Below are positions 3,454 through 21,338 of a stretch of 30,670 bases of DNA, piece by piece. The DNA is from an uncultured Candidatus Saccharibacteria bacterium (GTDB lineage Bacteria; Patescibacteriota; WWE3; UBA101185; UBA10185). Numbering within the stretch: the stretch's first letter is position 1; every line of letters starts with the position of its first letter. The stretch lies in NCBI GenBank assembly GCA_964464645.1, contig CAYXGU010000001.1, positions 1,716 through 32,385 on the forward strand. Reading direction: 5' to 3'. The notes below the pieces were generated by a model. It had not been told where the DNA came from and ran no database searches. It was given only the letters and a program-made list of their open reading frames with translations. A program made the position numbers and the translations under genes.

Positions 3454-5241
3454 ATGAAAACAACTTGGGATTTGTCACTTTTACTAGTAAGTGACGCGGA
3501 TCCGACAATAAAAATATTTTTGGCAAAATGCGAGACCGAAGCACAAAAATTTGTAAAAAAGTGGGAACCTCGTACCGACTACCTCTCCGAACCAAAAATC
3601 TTAAAAGGTGCGCTGAGTGAGTTTGAAAAATGGGTAACCACCTACGCCATGGGCGGAAAGGTTGGCTTTTACTTTAGTCTTAAAGGGTCGCTTGATAAAA
3701 ACGATCCAAACATTAAGGCCATGAATAATAAAATAGCCGAGCAGTCAGTGAGGATCGAAAATGAGATGCAGTTTTTTATGCACCGGGTTTCGACCATGCC
3801 TAAAAAAGACCAAAAACGATTTTTGGCCTACGCGGACCTTAAGGAGTACAAACACTTTCTGGAGAAAAGTTTTGCCGAAGCCAAATACTTGCTAACCGAA
3901 CCCGAAGAAAAAGTAGTCAATTTAATGGCAAAAACCTCGTTTTCAAATTGGCGGGCAATGCTTTCGGCTTTGCTAGCTAAAGAGGAGATTGTGGTTTTGA
4001 CCGAACAAGATAAGCAGACTAAGGTCCCTTTTTCTCAAGCTCCAAACCTACTTGTAAGTAAGAACAAAAAAGTTCGCGACAGTGTAGCACAAGAAATAAA
4101 CAGAGTGCTTGAAAAACAGTCTGATGTGGCCGAGCATGAGCTAAATTCACTGCTTGAAGCAAAAAAAGTTGCTGATGATATGCGCAAAATTAGCCGCCCC
4201 GATCTTGGACGCCACATTTCAGATGATATTGAAAGCAAAGTGGTAGACGTAATGCTTCAAACTGTTGCCGACCATTTTAGTATTTCGAAACGCTATTACA
4301 AATTAAAGGCGCAACTCTTGGGTGTGCCAAAGCTTGAGTACCACGACCGCTCAGCCGAGTACGGAACTGTTAACACACGGTATGATTTTGCGAAGGCGTG
4401 CACCCTAGCACGTGAGACTTTTTACGACCTGGACCAGGATTTTGGCAAGATCTTTGACACGTATGTTGCCAATGGCCACATTGATGTGTATTCAAAAAAA
4501 GGCAAGTCGGGCGGTGCATTTTGCACAACCTGGTTAAGAGATCACCCTACTTATATTTTGCTTAATTACTCAAACAAGCTAAATGATGTATTAACCCTTG
4601 CACACGAGGTCGGGCACGGTATTAATACTGAACTTATTAAAGTTCAGAGTGAGCTAAATTATATGACACCGCTGTCAACCGCAGAAGTTGCAAGCACATT
4701 TATGGAAGACTTTGTGCTGGAAAGGGTTTTGCGCGAGGCAGACGACGAAACCAAACTGGCAATTATGATGATGAGAATGGACGACAATGTGGCGACAATT
4801 TTGCGACAAGTTGCCTGCTATAAATTTGAACAGGAATTACATGCAACCTTTAGACAAGCGGGCTATTTATCAAAAACGCAAATTGGCAAGCTGTTTCAAA
4901 AACACATGAAGGCATATATGGGTTCGTATGTTAACCACCCACCGGAATCGCAAAACTGGTGGATATACTGGAGCCACATTAGGAGTTTTTTTTATGTGTA
5001 CTCATACGCAAGTGGCTTGCTTATTTCGAAAGCCCTGCAAAATAAGGTAAAGCAGGATCCGAAATTTATTTTAGCTGTAAAAGACTTTTTAGCCGCAGGC
5101 GGGTCGGAATCACCAAAGACCAGCTTTCGAAAACTTGGAATTGATATTACCGACAAAAACTTTTGGGTTACAGGGCTTGCAGAAGTAGAAACACTGTTGC
5201 AAGACACACAAAAATTAGCAAAAAAGCTTGGGAAAATATAA
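3454..5241 (+). CDS. pepF: Oligoendopeptidase F (peptidase M3B)
   Basis: 595 aa; WDLS N-terminus, KGKSGGAFC, LAHEVGH zinc motif, AEVASTFME, HIRSFFYVYSYASG. Confidence 0.93.
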   Translation: MKTTWDLSLLLVSDADPTIKIFLAKCETEAQKFVKKWEPRTDYLSEPKILKGALSEFEKWVTTYAMGGKVGFYFSLKGSLDKNDPNIKAMNNKIAEQSVRIENEMQFFMHRVSTMPKKDQKRFLAYADLKEYKHFLEKSFAEAKYLLTEPEEKVVNLMAKTSFSNWRAMLSALLAKEEIVVLTEQDKQTKVPFSQAPNLLVSKNKKVRDSVAQEINRVLEKQSDVAEHELNSLLEAKKVADDMRKISRPDLGRHISDDIESKVVDVMLQTVADHFSISKRYYKLKAQLLGVPKLEYHDRSAEYGTVNTRYDFAKACTLARETFYDLDQDFGKIFDTYVANGHIDVYSKKGKSGGAFCTTWLRDHPTYILLNYSNKLNDVLTLAHEVGHGINTELIKVQSELNYMTPLSTAEVASTFMEDFVLERVLREADDETKLAIMMMRMDDNVATILRQVACYKFEQELHATFRQAGYLSKTQIGKLFQKHMKAYMGSYVNHPPESQNWWIYWSHIRSFFYVYSYASGLLISKALQNKVKQDPKFILAVKDFLAAGGSESPKTSFRKLGIDITDKNFWVTGLAEVETLLQDTQKLAKKLGKI

Positions 5242-6611: not shown

Positions 6612-7382
6612 TTACTGATTCTCGGTTACTATCACGGTAGGCCCATCAACTACTTTGTACAGTACTGCACGTCCTTCTTCGTCTACTTGTGTTATCTCAA
6701 CTGTTACTTCGACCAGTTCGCCAACTAGGTCTGCGACTCTGTCTGCTTCTGCACCTTCAAACACAAAGTAAAAAGTTGCACCGATGTTCTCGTCTACCAG
6801 CGTATAAAATACACCAAGCGGACCGTCTGAAACCTGCGGTTTAAGCACACCTTCTAAGGTGACAACGTCGCCAACTGAAACTACCGGTGTTTCAACCGGA
6901 TCGCCGTTTTCGTCAACTTCGTCATCTGACGGCTGGTCAACAACAACGGCAAGTGCATCACCTATTCTAGTTTTTACCTCTTCTAAAACAACTGCGAGTG
7001 CATCTTGCACTTCTTGTGGAAAAGTGGATTTGTCTTCAAGTAAAACTGTGGGATCGGTTTCGACAAACAAAACTACTACATCTAGGTTTGTTTGGCCGGC
7101 CTCTGAAAGCAGCGGCTCGATCACATTCACATAATCCGTAAAGATCTTTAGCTGAGCGAGCGCCTTTGCTCTGGTCATATCTTCTTCGGTCTGATCGCCG
7201 GTGTCGGCACCATCTTCCGGCTGTAGTGTTTCTTCTTCGGTCGGGGGAGGAGATTCTGCGCTGTTACTTGATAGCCAATATAACCCAAGTCCGCCAAGTG
7301 CCAAGACTACAAGAATAACAATCACGGTTTTCATTGTGCTGTCTTGTCCACCTTGGGGCTGGGATGGTGTTGTTTCTGTCAT
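6612..7382 (-). CDS. Hypothetical acidic membrane-anchored protein
   Basis: 256 aa, N-terminal TM helix, AGGAGG Shine-Dalgarno upstream, beta-rich C-terminal domain. Confidence 0.75.
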   Translation of the reverse strand: MTETTPSQPQGGQDSTMKTVIVILVVLALGGLGLYWLSSNSAESPPPTEEETLQPEDGADTGDQTEEDMTRAKALAQLKIFTDYVNVIEPLLSEAGQTNLDVVVLFVETDPTVLLEDKSTFPQEVQDALAVVLEEVKTRIGDALAVVVDQPSDDEVDENGDPVETPVVSVGDVVTLEGVLKPQVSDGPLGVFYTLVDENIGATFYFVFEGAEADRVADLVGELVEVTVEITQVDEEGRAVLYKVVDGPTVIVTENQ

Positions 7383-14104: not shown

Positions 14105-14160
14105 TTGGGGATTGGTGTGACGCAAGAGTACTTGCTATCACCATCGTTGGGGATTGGTGT
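14105..14160 (+). repeat. 14-bp direct repeat of the tRNA-Gln 5' end enclosing a hairpin
   Basis: TTGGGGATTGGTGT at 14105-14118 and 14147-14160; GCAAG-AGTA-CTTGC hairpin between them. Confidence 0.85.
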
Positions 14161-14221
14161 AATGGCAGCACGCTGCACTCTGGATGCAGAAATCGGGGTT
14201 CGAATCCCTGATCCCCAGCCA
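14148..14221 (+). tRNA. tRNA-Gln (anticodon CTG)
   Basis: TGGGGAT/ATCCCCA acceptor (U1-A72), CTGCA-CT-CTG-GA-TGCAG anticodon arm, GGTTCGAATCC T-arm, encoded CCA. Confidence 0.97.
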
Positions 14222-14671
14222 TATAGCCTGGAGAAACCTTGTATGATATGGGTGATATACTTGTATAATGCTTATTAAAATTACACCAGAAATAATAAAT
14301 GCAGTTAAAACTATAGAGGGAATTTTAATTTCTAAGAATTATAAGAATCTTTCCTCCGAAAAAAGGACTAATAGATTAAGTAACGATGAGGTAGAAAAAG
14401 CGATTAAGAATTACGGAGGTTCTGTAACAGAAAGACCTGCACTCAGCTTATCTGATTTACAAGTTATTAAAATCGAAGGAAGTGATTTTGATACATATCA
14501 TGTAGACTACGATTTATATATTGACGGTAAACAAAGTGATCTCACATTATCGCTAATAGTTACCAACATTGACGGTAACTACGTAGCTTCAATAGAAGAT
14601 TTACACGTTTTATAAATCCTAGAGAATTAATTGGTTCCTGACCGACATGCTCAGCCATATAGCCTGGAGAA
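14216..14671 (+). repeat. 20-bp exact direct repeat spanning the tRNA CCA end, flanking one gene
   Basis: CAGCCATATAGCCTGGAGAA at 14216-14235 and 14652-14671. Confidence 0.95.
14268..14615 (+). CDS. Hypothetical protein (DUF7668-like), cassette 1 cargo
   Basis: 115 aa, AT-rich, SDLTLSL...IEDLHVL C-terminus. Own TGA-TATACT 6 nt before ATG. Confidence 0.7.
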   Translation: MLIKITPEIINAVKTIEGILISKNYKNLSSEKRTNRLSNDEVEKAIKNYGGSVTERPALSLSDLQVIKIEGSDFDTYHVDYDLYIDGKQSDLTLSLIVTNIDGNYVASIEDLHVL

Positions 14672-14740
14672 GACGCATACAGGACAGTTAGCAATAAAAA
14701 AATAATTGAAAATGTACTTTAGAAGTAATATTTTATATCA

Positions 14741-15382
14741 ATGACTATCCCATTCTCAAAAGAAGATTTTTTTGAAATATTCGCAAGCTATAACAATGCG
14801 ATATTTCCTATGCAATTTTTTCTAATTGCCATAGCATTGGTATCGGTTTTTATTGTACTTAAAGGAAATATCAAGTATAAATTTGTTGTTCCAGCAACCC
14901 TAGCTTTTTTGTGGGCATGGATGGGAATTGCCTATCATATAATGTTTTTTTCACAGATAAACCCCGTTGCAAAATTATTTGGATTTGTATTTGTCATTCA
15001 ATCTGTGATTTTCATCTTTGTAGGATTAGTGAGGAAAGATCTTAACTTTGTTAAGCCAAAAGGGTTCAGCTTATATTTATCAATCACTCTACTTATATAT
15101 GCGTTTCTTATCTACCCATTAATAACGATAAGAACCGGACACACGTATCCAAGCATGCCAACTTTTGGTCTTCCTTGTCCGACAACGATTTATACTTTTG
15201 GAATTCTCTTACTTACAGATTTGAAAAAACTACCCAAATACGTAATCGTTATTCCGGCATCTTGGGCTATTATAGGATCAACTGCAGCGTTTAAACTTGG
15301 GATAGTTGCGGATACAATGTTATTTATCAGTTTATTTGGGTTTCTTGGAACAATTTACATCAAGAAAAAAACAACTCTATAG
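14741..15382 (+). CDS. DUF6064-like multi-pass membrane protein, cassette 2 cargo
   Basis: PFSKEDFFEIFASYN..IFPMQ, W.WMGIAYH, PTFGLPCPTTIYT; about 7 TM segments. Confidence 0.8.
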   Translation: MTIPFSKEDFFEIFASYNNAIFPMQFFLIAIALVSVFIVLKGNIKYKFVVPATLAFLWAWMGIAYHIMFFSQINPVAKLFGFVFVIQSVIFIFVGLVRKDLNFVKPKGFSLYLSITLLIYAFLIYPLITIRTGHTYPSMPTFGLPCPTTIYTFGILLLTDLKKLPKYVIVIPASWAIIGSTAAFKLGIVADTMLFISLFGFLGTIYIKKKTTL

Positions 15383-15578
15383 AGTAATTTGGTTTCCGAC
15401 TGACCTGCTCAGCCAGTAAGAGTAAGATCGCTAAAGACAGGATTCTAGTTCAATTAAGTCGAGTAAAACACAAAAAGTAAGTAATTGACAACACTGACGC
15501 GTTCATTTTTCAGGCCGAAGCTTTGCAAGAACAACAAAGCCACAAACATCACCCACAATGGCTTGATATAATGCATAA

Positions 15579-17051
15579 ATGAATCTGAAAGAACTTTTGA
15601 AGGGGTTGGACTGGAACGGGGAGGTAAATAAAGAAGCACCCAACGAAGTATCCTCGATAACAACCGATTCTAGAAATAGTGTGAAGAACTCTTTATTTAT
15701 AGCCATACGCGGTGTGGCTGTTGATGGTCATTCGTATATTTTGGATGCCATTAAGCATGGGGCTAGAGTTATTGTTCATGAAAAAAGCACTGTAAAGCCT
15801 AAGCATTATCCGCAAATTCTATTTATAAAAGTGGGCGACTCACGAAAAGCTAGTGCAATTATTGCCGCAAACTACCACGGCAACGTGCACAAGAGAATGA
15901 AACTGTTTAGTATTACTGGCACTAACGGCAAAACTACAACCAGCGAGTTAACTTATCAACTACTTAAAAAACTAAAGAAAAAGGTTGGGCTTATTTCAAC
16001 AGTATCAGCTAAGTTTTCTGGGTCTGAACTTGACACCGGCTACCACGTAACAACACCCGATTCAATAGAACTGCACAAAATAATTGCCACTATGTACAAA
16101 AAGGGCTGTGAGCATCTAATTATTGAAACAACTTCTCACGGTTTGGATCAACACAGAACTTGGGGACTAAACTTTGAAGTCGGCGCAGTCACAAACGTCA
16201 CACCCGAACATCTGGATTATCACAAAACCTTTACCAAATATTTAAATGCAAAGGCTAGACTATTTGATCAATCTAATGTAACTTTGCTAAACAAATTCGA
16301 TCCAGCTTTGTACAAACTTGTAAAGAGACTTCCGACACACGCTAAGTACGAAATTGTTGATTACACAAAGCTTAAATTCCCAAAAGCATTCGTCAACAAG
16401 TTTCCGGGACAATACAATCTGGAAAACGCCGCCATGGCACATGCGATTGTAGAGAAGATTGCGGGCGTAAGTACCGCGCGTTATTTTGGCAGTCTACAAA
16501 GTGTTAGAGGTAGAATGGAAGTCATTAAAACAAAAACTAACATTACAATTGTGATTGACTTTGCGCACGATGCTACAGCATTGGAAAATGTCTTAAAAGT
16601 TGCAAAAACACTCACGGAAAACAAGCTAATTCTAGTATTTGGGTGCGCCGGGCTTAGAGACACAGCAAAACGGCCAAAGATGGGTGGGTTAGCTGTAAAG
16701 TTGGCTGACCAAGCCGTATTAACAGCTGAGGATCCTAGGACCGAGAAACTAGCCAATATAAATAAGGAAATAGTCGGCGGGATAACAGCAGTCGGCGGTA
16801 AAATAAACAGAGACTATTTTGTCATAGATGATAGGCAAGAAGCTATAAATTTTGCAATTAACAAACTGGCCAAAGATGGCGATTTAGTTTTAATTACAGG
16901 AAAGGGGCACGAAAAATCAATGTGCTTTGGAACTACAGAATACCCATGGTCAGATCAACAGGCTGTTAAGAATGCATTAGCCTTGCAATCTTCGTACAAC
17001 AACATCCCCATCTCTCAAGTAATTAGTCCACCTATCATAACCGTCGACTAG
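15579..17051 (+). CDS. murE: UDP-N-acetylmuramoyl-tripeptide synthetase MurE
   Basis: DSR, ITGTNGKTTT, TTP, EHLDYH, GRME, IDFAH, FGCAGLRD, GKGHE motifs. Confidence 0.93.
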   Translation: MNLKELLKGLDWNGEVNKEAPNEVSSITTDSRNSVKNSLFIAIRGVAVDGHSYILDAIKHGARVIVHEKSTVKPKHYPQILFIKVGDSRKASAIIAANYHGNVHKRMKLFSITGTNGKTTTSELTYQLLKKLKKKVGLISTVSAKFSGSELDTGYHVTTPDSIELHKIIATMYKKGCEHLIIETTSHGLDQHRTWGLNFEVGAVTNVTPEHLDYHKTFTKYLNAKARLFDQSNVTLLNKFDPALYKLVKRLPTHAKYEIVDYTKLKFPKAFVNKFPGQYNLENAAMAHAIVEKIAGVSTARYFGSLQSVRGRMEVIKTKTNITIVIDFAHDATALENVLKVAKTLTENKLILVFGCAGLRDTAKRPKMGGLAVKLADQAVLTAEDPRTEKLANINKEIVGGITAVGGKINRDYFVIDDRQEAINFAINKLAKDGDLVLITGKGHEKSMCFGTTEYPWSDQQAVKNALALQSSYNNIPISQVISPPIITVD

Positions 17052-20690: not shown

Positions 20691-20715
20691 CTGCCCTGAC
20701 CGACATATATAACCA
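20691..20715 (+). repeat. Further copy of the cassette-end site
   Basis: CCTGACCGACAT (20695-20706) is identical to 14637-14648, and CCA follows in the same register (16/25 overall). Lies 20 nt after a stop codon. Confidence 0.6.
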
Positions 20716-20744
20716 AAATATCATGGTGTTGATATACTAAACTC

Positions 20745-21338
20745 ATGACAACCGAAAACTTTTATCCTCTAACATGGGAGCATTATGGAATATTAATCGA
20801 AGACTTATGGAAAGATCTTAATTCAAAACTGCACAACCAAAATATTCATATAGATGCTGTCATCGCAATACTGAGAGAAGGGGCTTTTACTGCGTTTCCA
20901 CTGGCGTACAAGTTAAACACTTATAAAGTTTTAACGGTGCAATACAAATACATGCTATACAACGGTTCCAATGAGTTAAAAAGAATTAGCAAGTTTGCGC
21001 CCGCTGAGTTTGAGCTTCCCGCTTCACCAGTATTTCTACTGTGTGATACATTTCCGTGTGGTGGAAAAACTAAGTTTCTCGCGGCTGAAGAAATTAAAAA
21101 TACCTATCCGACATGCAAATTTGTGTTTGCATCTCTCATTCAGGACCACTCTGTCGAACAGCATCCTGATTTTATAGCTTCCGCCTACGCGTTTGATATT
21201 AACGATAAATGGGAAACAAATCATCCACTATTCAAAGAACTTGGCATTGAAAAAAGTGCGCTTAATGTGTATCTGCCATGGGAAAACAAGGAAGAAGAGG
21301 AAGCGTCAGTCAAGAGTCTGGAGTGGAACTACAACTAA
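20745..21338 (+). CDS. Type I phosphoribosyltransferase-like protein
   Basis: IDAVIAILREGAFTAFPLAYKL, variant PRPP loop FLLCDTFPCGGKT, C-terminal YLPWE. Confidence 0.75.
   Translation: MTTENFYPLTWEHYGILIEDLWKDLNSKLHNQNIHIDAVIAILREGAFTAFPLAYKLNTYKVLTVQYKYMLYNGSNELKRISKFAPAEFELPASPVFLLCDTFPCGGKTKFLAAEEIKNTYPTCKFVFASLIQDHSVEQHPDFIASAYAFDINDKWETNHPLFKELGIEKSALNVYLPWENKEEEEASVKSLEWNYN

Follow-up and report, generated by a model that had tools for sequence, protein, structure and literature searches.

The question raised by this locus is what two short DNA units are that stand one behind the other directly after the CCA end of a tRNA-Gln gene, each holding one gene and each closed by a similar 25-nt segment. 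The locus lies in a stretch of 30,670 nucleotides (the window) from an uncultured bacterium of WWE3, within the candidate phyla radiation (CPR), whose assembly of 774 kb in 100 contigs is 96.5% complete. The tRNA gene was called by ARAGORN and matched the Rfam tRNA model with 63 bits, and the array behind it was delimited as follows (ORF, open reading frame).

14148-14221, plus strand: tRNA-Gln(CTG) gene with encoded CCA
14197-14221, plus strand: last 25 nt of the tRNA-Gln gene, the counterpart arm of the cassette sites
14216-14221, plus strand: CAGCCA, the stretch common to the tRNA end and the sites
14222-14657, plus strand: cassette 1, 436 nt, directly after the tRNA CCA
14222-14237, plus strand: type-A left end of cassette 1, TATAGCCTGGAGAAAC
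14268-14615, plus strand: ORF of cassette 1, DUF7668 (E 1e-17)
14618-14626, plus strand: box of cassette 1, CCTAGAGAA
14633-14657, plus strand: 25-nt site of cassette 1 (site 2)
14658-15415, plus strand: cassette 2, 758 nt
14658-14673, plus strand: type-A left end of cassette 2, TATAGCCTGGAGAAGA, with a CCTG..CAGG hairpin
14741-15382, plus strand: ORF of cassette 2, DUF6064 membrane protein (E 6e-48)
15391-15415, plus strand: 25-nt site of cassette 2 (site 3), somewhat diverged

We consider it likely that the window carries a two-unit tandem array of recombinase-less cassettes at the CCA of tRNA-Gln(CTG), and that the 25-nt site is one arm (P) of the attP of WWE3 elements encoding a large serine recombinase (LSR). 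The data as a whole establish a real, family-wide cassette system at tRNA-Gln, for which a serine recombinase is the most likely basis.

The observation in the window itself was confirmed and is far from chance. A degenerate 25-mer matched the window only at 14633-14657 and 15391-15415 and gave no match in 100 shuffles, upholding the claim of the original prediction, made from the window's letters, that the tRNA end and the two sites are three 25-nt segments of the same length with the same end motifs. The 20-nt sequence CAGCCATATAGCCTGGAGAA occurs exactly at 14216 and 14652 (0 in shuffles), the 3′ terminus of both units is GGTTCYYGACYGACMTGCTCAGCCA, and the two copies extended to 39 nt (14619-14657 and 15377-15415) share 79% identity. 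On direct reading, site 2 agrees with site 3 at 21/25 positions and with the tRNA end at 16/25, and the 14 nt after CCA are identical for the tRNA and site 2, all as predicted. Scored with a position weight matrix (PWM), site 2 reached 45.9 bits and site 3 32.7 bits (nhmmer E 0.0018 for the latter). Each unit has one long ORF, and the two genes are unrelated; their stops at 14615 and 15382 fall 3 nt before and inside the extended site, respectively, so that the predicted placement of the sites at or within 3 nt of the cargo stop was also borne out. A promoter of its own had been proposed for each unit, and this was not sustained, since 10 promoter-like matches against 6.5 ± 2.2 in shuffles represent no enrichment. 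In the window genome the two array sites were the sole significant copies by nhmmer and PWM; further copies on its contigs C16 and C28 lie in or near ORFs, look like chance and were rejected.

The site proved to be widespread among relatives. Searching 86 genomes of the same family with an 18-nt core at no more than two mismatches returned 99 matches, in 40/86 genomes and 26/51 genera, against one match in the reversed-sequence control, as expected if copies exist elsewhere. The site is also present in four other families of the class. When one genome per species was searched across 185k species, an exact 24-mer was confined to records whose titles name candidate division WWE3, Patescibacteria or, where labels were automatic, Saccharibacteria, and it was found in 67 metagenome contigs. 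The logo of 85 non-redundant sites gave the consensus GGTTCTAGACCGACATGCTCAGCCA, with high information from position -24 to 0 and about zero at +1, directly past CCA; positions -24 to -18 are strongly conserved though they lie outside the search pattern. A box, CCYRGAGAA, often stands 8-10 nt upstream. Likeness to the tRNA is limited to GGTTC and CAGCCA and the site otherwise differs consistently from the tRNA end, so that the earlier description of the sites as tRNA mimics gave way to one arm of an LSR attP, which fits better. Mimicry of the T arm was considered and rejected on inspection: the would-be T stem pairs (4 bp) in site 2 of the window and not in other copies.

In relatives, every site was on the same strand as the tRNA and lay downstream of tRNA-Gln(CTG) or tRNA-Gln(TTG). 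Arrays of six (G061:C13), four (G061:C6) and three (G032:C5) sites were found in genomes, and up to eight on one metagenome contig. The upstream order tRNA-Glu, 142-aa gene, VanW, NYN, tRNA-Gln is kept across genera and everything 3′ of CCA differs, with arrays and LSR islands (see below) beginning directly after the tRNA-Gln CCA. The variation in cassette number and order that had been anticipated among relatives is thus present, and it extends to content. Taking a unit as the interval between consecutive boundaries, we obtained 64 distinct units, or 100 once metagenome loci were added. Units measure 186-3364 nt (median 725 nt), 46/64 have a single ORF, and 85% of unit sequence is coding. The single ORF is on the tRNA strand in 34/45 cases and on the opposite strand in 11/45, and in 10/34 same-strand cassettes (e.g. 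arrays L082, L083, L090 and L092) the start codon follows CCA by only 5-12 nt, which leaves no room within the unit for a promoter or a normal ribosome-binding site. Cargo is nearly all unrelated between units, with five small homologue groups among about 90 cargo ORFs; it includes uracil-DNA glycosylase (UDG), phosphoribosyltransferase (PRTase)-like, HAD, SDR, radical SAM, glycosyltransferase and alginate lyase genes, and many without a Pfam match. A few true partial tRNA ends also occur within the arrays.

These data bear on a reading at the RNA level, by which the site would be a tRNA-like 3′ processing or termination element after each gene of a tRNA-initiated transcript. The site does end in CCA and lies just past stop codons, and its length equals that of a T-arm together with the acceptor 3′ strand. 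Rfam, however, returned only the tRNA and nothing for the site, and DNA folding of both strands of both window sites gave z scores of -0.7 to +0.9 versus shuffles, with no palindrome or significant hairpin and so no stable fold. Moreover, the orientation of the site tracks the tRNA even where the cargo is on the opposite strand, the site also closes islands of 7-17 kb, and it is native terminator hairpins, not sites, that follow the last site of an array. We regard an RNA signal as the most improbable of the explanations weighed here.

The left ends of the 100 units fall into three kinds. Type A (25/100, across genera, including both window units) reads TATAKCCTGGAGAAAC followed by a short hairpin whose stem co-varies, type B (14/100) reads GAATGGGCAC..GACCA.., and the remaining 61/100 have no conserved position save a purine at +1. 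The type-A hairpin measures 5-7 bp, its stem co-varying between copies. It was also seen that the type-A left end TATATCCTGGAGAA...TAYAGGAT is a direct-orientation repeat of the 5′ box region that full P arms carry, TATATCCTAGAGAA...TAGGTTCT; window 14222-14251 and 14658-14686 and L128 4843-4900 are examples of this left end.

Two cassettes recur in different settings. In G032 the UDG cassette comes first, behind the tRNA, and in G003 it comes second, behind another cassette; the two copies are homologous from +1 past CCA to the CCA of their own site, and the alignment ends there on both sides. The DUF7668 cassette of the window has homologues with 71-83% aa identity in three metagenome contigs (L120-L122), where the same type-A end lies about 47 nt ahead of the ATG and a site about 25 nt past the stop; there it stands behind other sites, or behind a partial tRNA end deep in a tRNA-Gln(TTG) array, and has different neighbors downstream. 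Since UDG and DUF7668 cassettes recur with identical boundaries in different contexts, the cassette is, judged from these alignments, the unit that moves or is exchanged. For the window DUF6064 gene, the nearest homologue (65% aa) lies between decayed site-like ends and the remaining family is in Bacteroidota and other phyla, a distribution that would fit a foreign origin.

A decayed ORF at the end of the G032 array gave the trail to the LSRs. In most of the loci fetched, LSR genes of the family adjoin tRNA genes and converge on them (Gln-CTG, Gln-TTG, Pro, Asn, Glu and Ser). Those of the clade at tRNA-Gln encode 400-440 aa with Resolvase, Recombinase and zinc-ribbon domains and lie about 0.2-2.7 kb from the tRNA. 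In 6/6 tRNA-Gln islands with both ends assembled, the order is tRNA CCA, type-B end, LSR, cargo, and then the CCYRGAGAA box and the site on the tRNA strand, placing recombinase genes in islands that run from the tRNA-Gln CCA to the same site, which is what had been sought as a recombinase beside matching sites. The islands are listed here.

G002:C10, 17 kb: LSR island with a type I restriction-modification system as cargo
G107:C65, 12 kb: LSR island
G085:C11, 13.8 kb: LSR island
G088:C18, 7.2 kb: LSR island
G062:C159, 12.8 kb: LSR island, far-end site degenerate
G004:C4, 13.4 kb: LSR island

A metagenomic unit of 1.6 kb (L147) consists only of a type-B left end, an LSR gene, and box plus site. 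It was rejected as a minimal autonomous element because its LSR is a relic in which the first ~50 codons, and with them the catalytic serine, are missing; its makeup nevertheless shows which parts (type-B end, LSR, box and site) belong together. LSR islands and LSR-less cassettes are mixed in one array in G002, G011 and G032. Their order varies: in G002 the LSR island is proximal and the cassettes distal, and in G011 and G061 the cassettes are proximal and the type-B element distal.

Sister LSRs at tRNA-Pro have the same type-B end and the far-end arm TTCCATGACCGTACTGCTCGACCA, which keeps the inner GACCG..TGCTC and whose last 6 nt match tRNA-Pro, not tRNA-Gln. This variant was found in at least nine genomes (versus two control matches); in G032:C1 it forms the end of an island of 20 kb, and at tRNA-Pro of G015 and G011 that of units with one or two genes. 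Site variants ending in CGACCA (the tRNA-Pro type) or CCGCCA (L122 441-458; L121 7-24; L028 ~4364-4375) were also seen flanking the same type-A cassettes, including a DUF7668 homologue, which suggests that cassettes may be exchanged between arrays at different tRNAs.

The occurrence of the site in LSR islands also bears on the resemblance to integrons on which the original prediction was built. In layout it stands: units are mostly single-ORF with diverse cargo, each has a 3′ site, they are co-oriented behind one fixed primary site, and their ORFs are mostly on one strand, many without room for a promoter. The features that define an integron, an IntI and a folded attC, are not there. The gene upstream of the tRNA encodes an NYN-domain protein rather than an IntI-type tyrosine recombinase, the sites are conserved in sequence and form no folded imperfect palindrome, the primary site is a tRNA end, and the recombinase, when present, is carried inside an array element. 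The statement that no integrase lies near the array and no attC-type palindrome is present was accurate; no recombinase of any kind was found near the array within the window. A true integron type, in which a tyrosine recombinase acts on folded single-stranded sites, or a HUH/IS200/IS605-type enzyme cutting 3′ of CAGCCA would account for the single-ORF units, the preferred strand and the start codons close to the boundary, and conservation on one side of the cut only is as at HUH nick sites. Against both stand the sites, which fold no better than shuffled sequence, and their sharing with LSR islands. The three PF00589 genes of the window genome are on other contigs, no homologue of these three tyrosine recombinases occurs in 1.37 Mb of array loci, and neither a HUH gene among the cargo scanned nor primase or helicase modules in the small units were found by cargo scans. 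Likewise, the subterminal hairpins and TnpA/Rep gene of IS200/IS605 and HUH elements are absent here, where the autonomous copies carry an LSR. We hold an enzyme of either kind to be very unlikely.

For the LSR-based array we propose the following mechanism. The tRNA-Gln 3′ end would act as an attB-like chromosomal target whose arm corresponds to the P arm of the element, and the LSR element would recombine with the tRNA 3′ end inside the common ...CAGCCA. Insertion would leave the tRNA intact and land the P arm at the far side of the element; repeated insertion at the same CCA would then stack the units, the newest beside the tRNA and older ones pushed outward. Units without an LSR would be moved in trans by the LSR of another element, and same-strand cargo would be read through from upstream. 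The exchanged bases would have to fall within the terminal CCA or CAGCCA, since the first base of the native flank varies from genus to genus and CAGCCA is retained at all junctions. We infer that the LSR is the enzyme, that LSR-less units move in trans, that the crossover lies within CCA and that cargo is expressed by read-through; serial insertion and trans mobilization, which the original prediction had also put forward, are inferences of the same kind. As the window genome has no Gln-type LSR, any movement of its cassettes would need a helper in trans, and the two are probably static for now, barring the entry of a helper element into the cell.

Several results weigh against this mechanism. 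Canonical LSRs need two half-sites on each partner, and 61/100 units have one conserved arm only, at odds with such substrates; the site agrees with the reverse complement of the type-B end at only ~12/25 positions (by eye), so that inverted symmetry is weak. LSRs of any kind and sites occur together in 17 genomes versus 14 expected by chance (own tally), a loose association, and the 96.5%-complete window genome has no Gln-type LSR. No exact empty-site comparator was found: murE, a 246-aa gene and the Cys-rich gene were never beside tRNA-Gln in the relative loci fetched. Logan contigs of four public runs at ~5x showed the assembled form only and no joints, circles or empty sites, hence no recombination product, at a depth that makes this uninformative rather than negative. 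LSR remnants lie in 3/64 units, so that some units are decay products and not mobile cassettes.

On a rival reading, the units would be immobile leftovers of successive LSR islands that have lost the recombinase and most cargo. DNA uptake followed by homologous recombination between the 25-45-nt ends, and not site-specific movement of single cassettes, would then have spread the cassettes found in more than one place. The decayed LSR between sites in G032, the LSR C-terminal remnants in units, the truncated LSR of L147, the largely unconserved left ends, the lack of a Gln-type LSR in the window genome and a site-less cassette relic at 20745-21338 of the window (see below) are all in keeping with this. 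Random deletion, however, would not start every unit exactly past an intact CAGCCA, nor does it agree with most units being a single intact ORF at 85% coding, with a type-A left end kept in 25/100 units across genera, or with the same cassette at different positions with identical boundaries. We rate this account as unlikely, though it deserves more weight than an integron or an RNA signal. For the one-armed units this leaves two possibilities: a single specifically bound subunit on each duplex is enough, or many of the units are fixed remnants that homologous recombination between conserved ends has reshuffled.

The preferred reading, LSR-based cassettes at tRNA-Gln, can be extended, with considerable reserve, to an integron-like gene-capture platform of WWE3 and possibly other CPR bacteria that is driven by a serine recombinase, in which one-armed single-gene cassettes are caught at the tRNA-Gln CCA (or at tRNA-Pro with a matched arm), stacked by arrival and expressed by read-through from the tRNA promoter. 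If this tentative extension is true, the LSR works with one specific half-site per partner and the arrays are a main route of gene flux in these minimal genomes.

Among known systems, the closest mechanistic analogue is the staphylococcal cassette chromosome (SCC). Its elements are placed by LSRs behind a single conserved gene, at the 3′ end, where they pile up, and ccr-less pseudo-SCC can lie in the same composite island (bioRxiv 10.1101/336396). The same arrangement, in which tandem elements, some recombinase-less, follow the 3′ end of a single conserved gene and every junction carries a repeat, is seen in the window and in G002, G011 and G032. The differences are several. The target is rlmH in SCC and a tRNA CCA end here; SCC elements span 20-60 kb, whereas the units here are mostly 0.4-1.2 kb with one gene; SCC has a short direct repeat of the target end at each junction, whereas the junction repeat here is a 25-nt element-specific arm with only GGTTC and CAGCCA common with the target; and SCC carries a ccrAB pair, compared with apparently one LSR gene per island in a CPR host. 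Measured against an LSR integrative element in general, bounding by the target at one end and by an att arm of the element at the other is found in 6/6 tRNA-Gln islands and in the tRNA-Pro variant; an LSR gene inside the element is absent from the window units and genome and present in the tRNA-Gln islands of relatives.

The tycheposons of Prochlorococcus also lie in tandem at tRNA genes, with newcomers pushing older elements outward and degenerate remnants, and 910/937 carry a tyrosine recombinase and replication genes, 27/937 an LSR (bioRxiv 10.1101/2020.12.28.424599). They differ in that their separators are partial tRNA copies, whereas here a conserved non-tRNA sequence (16/25 to the tRNA end) separates single-gene units without integrase, and the enzyme family is serine. 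The cis-mobilizable elements (CIMEs) of streptococci, and their accretion with integrative and conjugative elements, offer a further parallel: these attachment-site-only elements use the recombinase of a related element and form tandem composites. The integrases in that case are of the tyrosine type, and CIMEs retain attL as well as attR with complete core sites, unlike most units here, which have one conserved arm only. Our literature search turned up no description of cassette arrays in WWE3 or of cassettes at tRNA-Gln.

The genomes of CPR bacteria are tiny and contain few recognized mobile elements, and accessory-gene exchange in these bacteria is poorly known. Here a single tRNA end would be the landing pad for a diverse pool of one-gene units, with 100 distinct cassettes and almost no repeats in the DNA sampled. 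Serine recombinases that target tRNA genes are rarely reported, and the Islander paper of 2014 stated that none were known to do so (PMC4383910). One-armed cassettes would challenge the two-half-site picture of LSRs and, if active, would be a genuinely new part. If activity is confirmed, the LSR with its short and well-defined sites would be a candidate for genome engineering, the tRNA CCA-end target being present in many organisms. The arrays would also make a handy marker of strain-level variation in WWE3 populations.

Elsewhere in the window, one further region may derive from such a cassette.

20691-21338, plus strand: probable relic of a cassette, with a decayed site at 20691-20715 and a PRTase-like gene behind it at 20745-21338

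The PRTase-like gene is 75% identical in nt and 83% in aa to the cargo of cassette 1 in G003, as compared with 52-68% aa for the neighboring core genes NYN and VanW. By itself the decayed site does not reach significance (PWM <12) and no site is left after the gene, so the region is read as a probable old, fixed cassette without a site of its own. Its surroundings at 18.1-22.2 kb hold accessory-type genes (AHSA1-like, a MazE/Doc pair, HAD, PRTase and NUDIX).

The array is flanked upstream by the NYN-domain gene and a small Cys-rich ORF and downstream by murE (15579-17051), and one segment remains between the last site and murE.

15416-15578, plus strand: flank past the last site, GTAAGAGTAAG..., up to murE

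This segment is either native flank or the left end of another element. A similar sequence, GTAAGAGATAA..., stands directly 3′ of the tRNA-Gln CCA in G007, and the GTAAGAG flank common to the two is a hint on the origin of 15416-15578 that is suggestive only. On the other side, the first 14-nt region of the tRNA-Gln (TTGGGGATTGGTGT, 14147-14160) is exactly repeated 42 nt upstream, at 14105-14118, and this repeat could be a scar of a 5′-side event or a leader element.

A second group of LSRs, ~490-550 aa long, has ORFs that run antisense into the adjacent tRNA (Asn-GTT, Gln-TTG or Pro-CGG) or into the preceding site. Read in antisense, the site encodes WLSMSV-stop, which is where two ORFs of this group end. 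The only serine recombinase of the window genome, 548 aa on contig C43 beside tRNA-Asn, belongs to this group; its locus (G000:C43, L032:490-2136) and L044, L048, L055, L056, L062 and L077 were recorded as second-group loci. Finally, in L067 (~7090-7265, minus strand), L132 (~16340-16487, minus strand), L190, L206 and L120 the last ~20 nt of tRNA-Gln are present in a second true copy, which is separated from the gene by an insert of ~150-170 nt. This arrangement has the look of a very small element, or of an attB that was duplicated, and differs from the canonical site; the insert of G011 consists of a native terminator hairpin followed by a GC-rich stretch.

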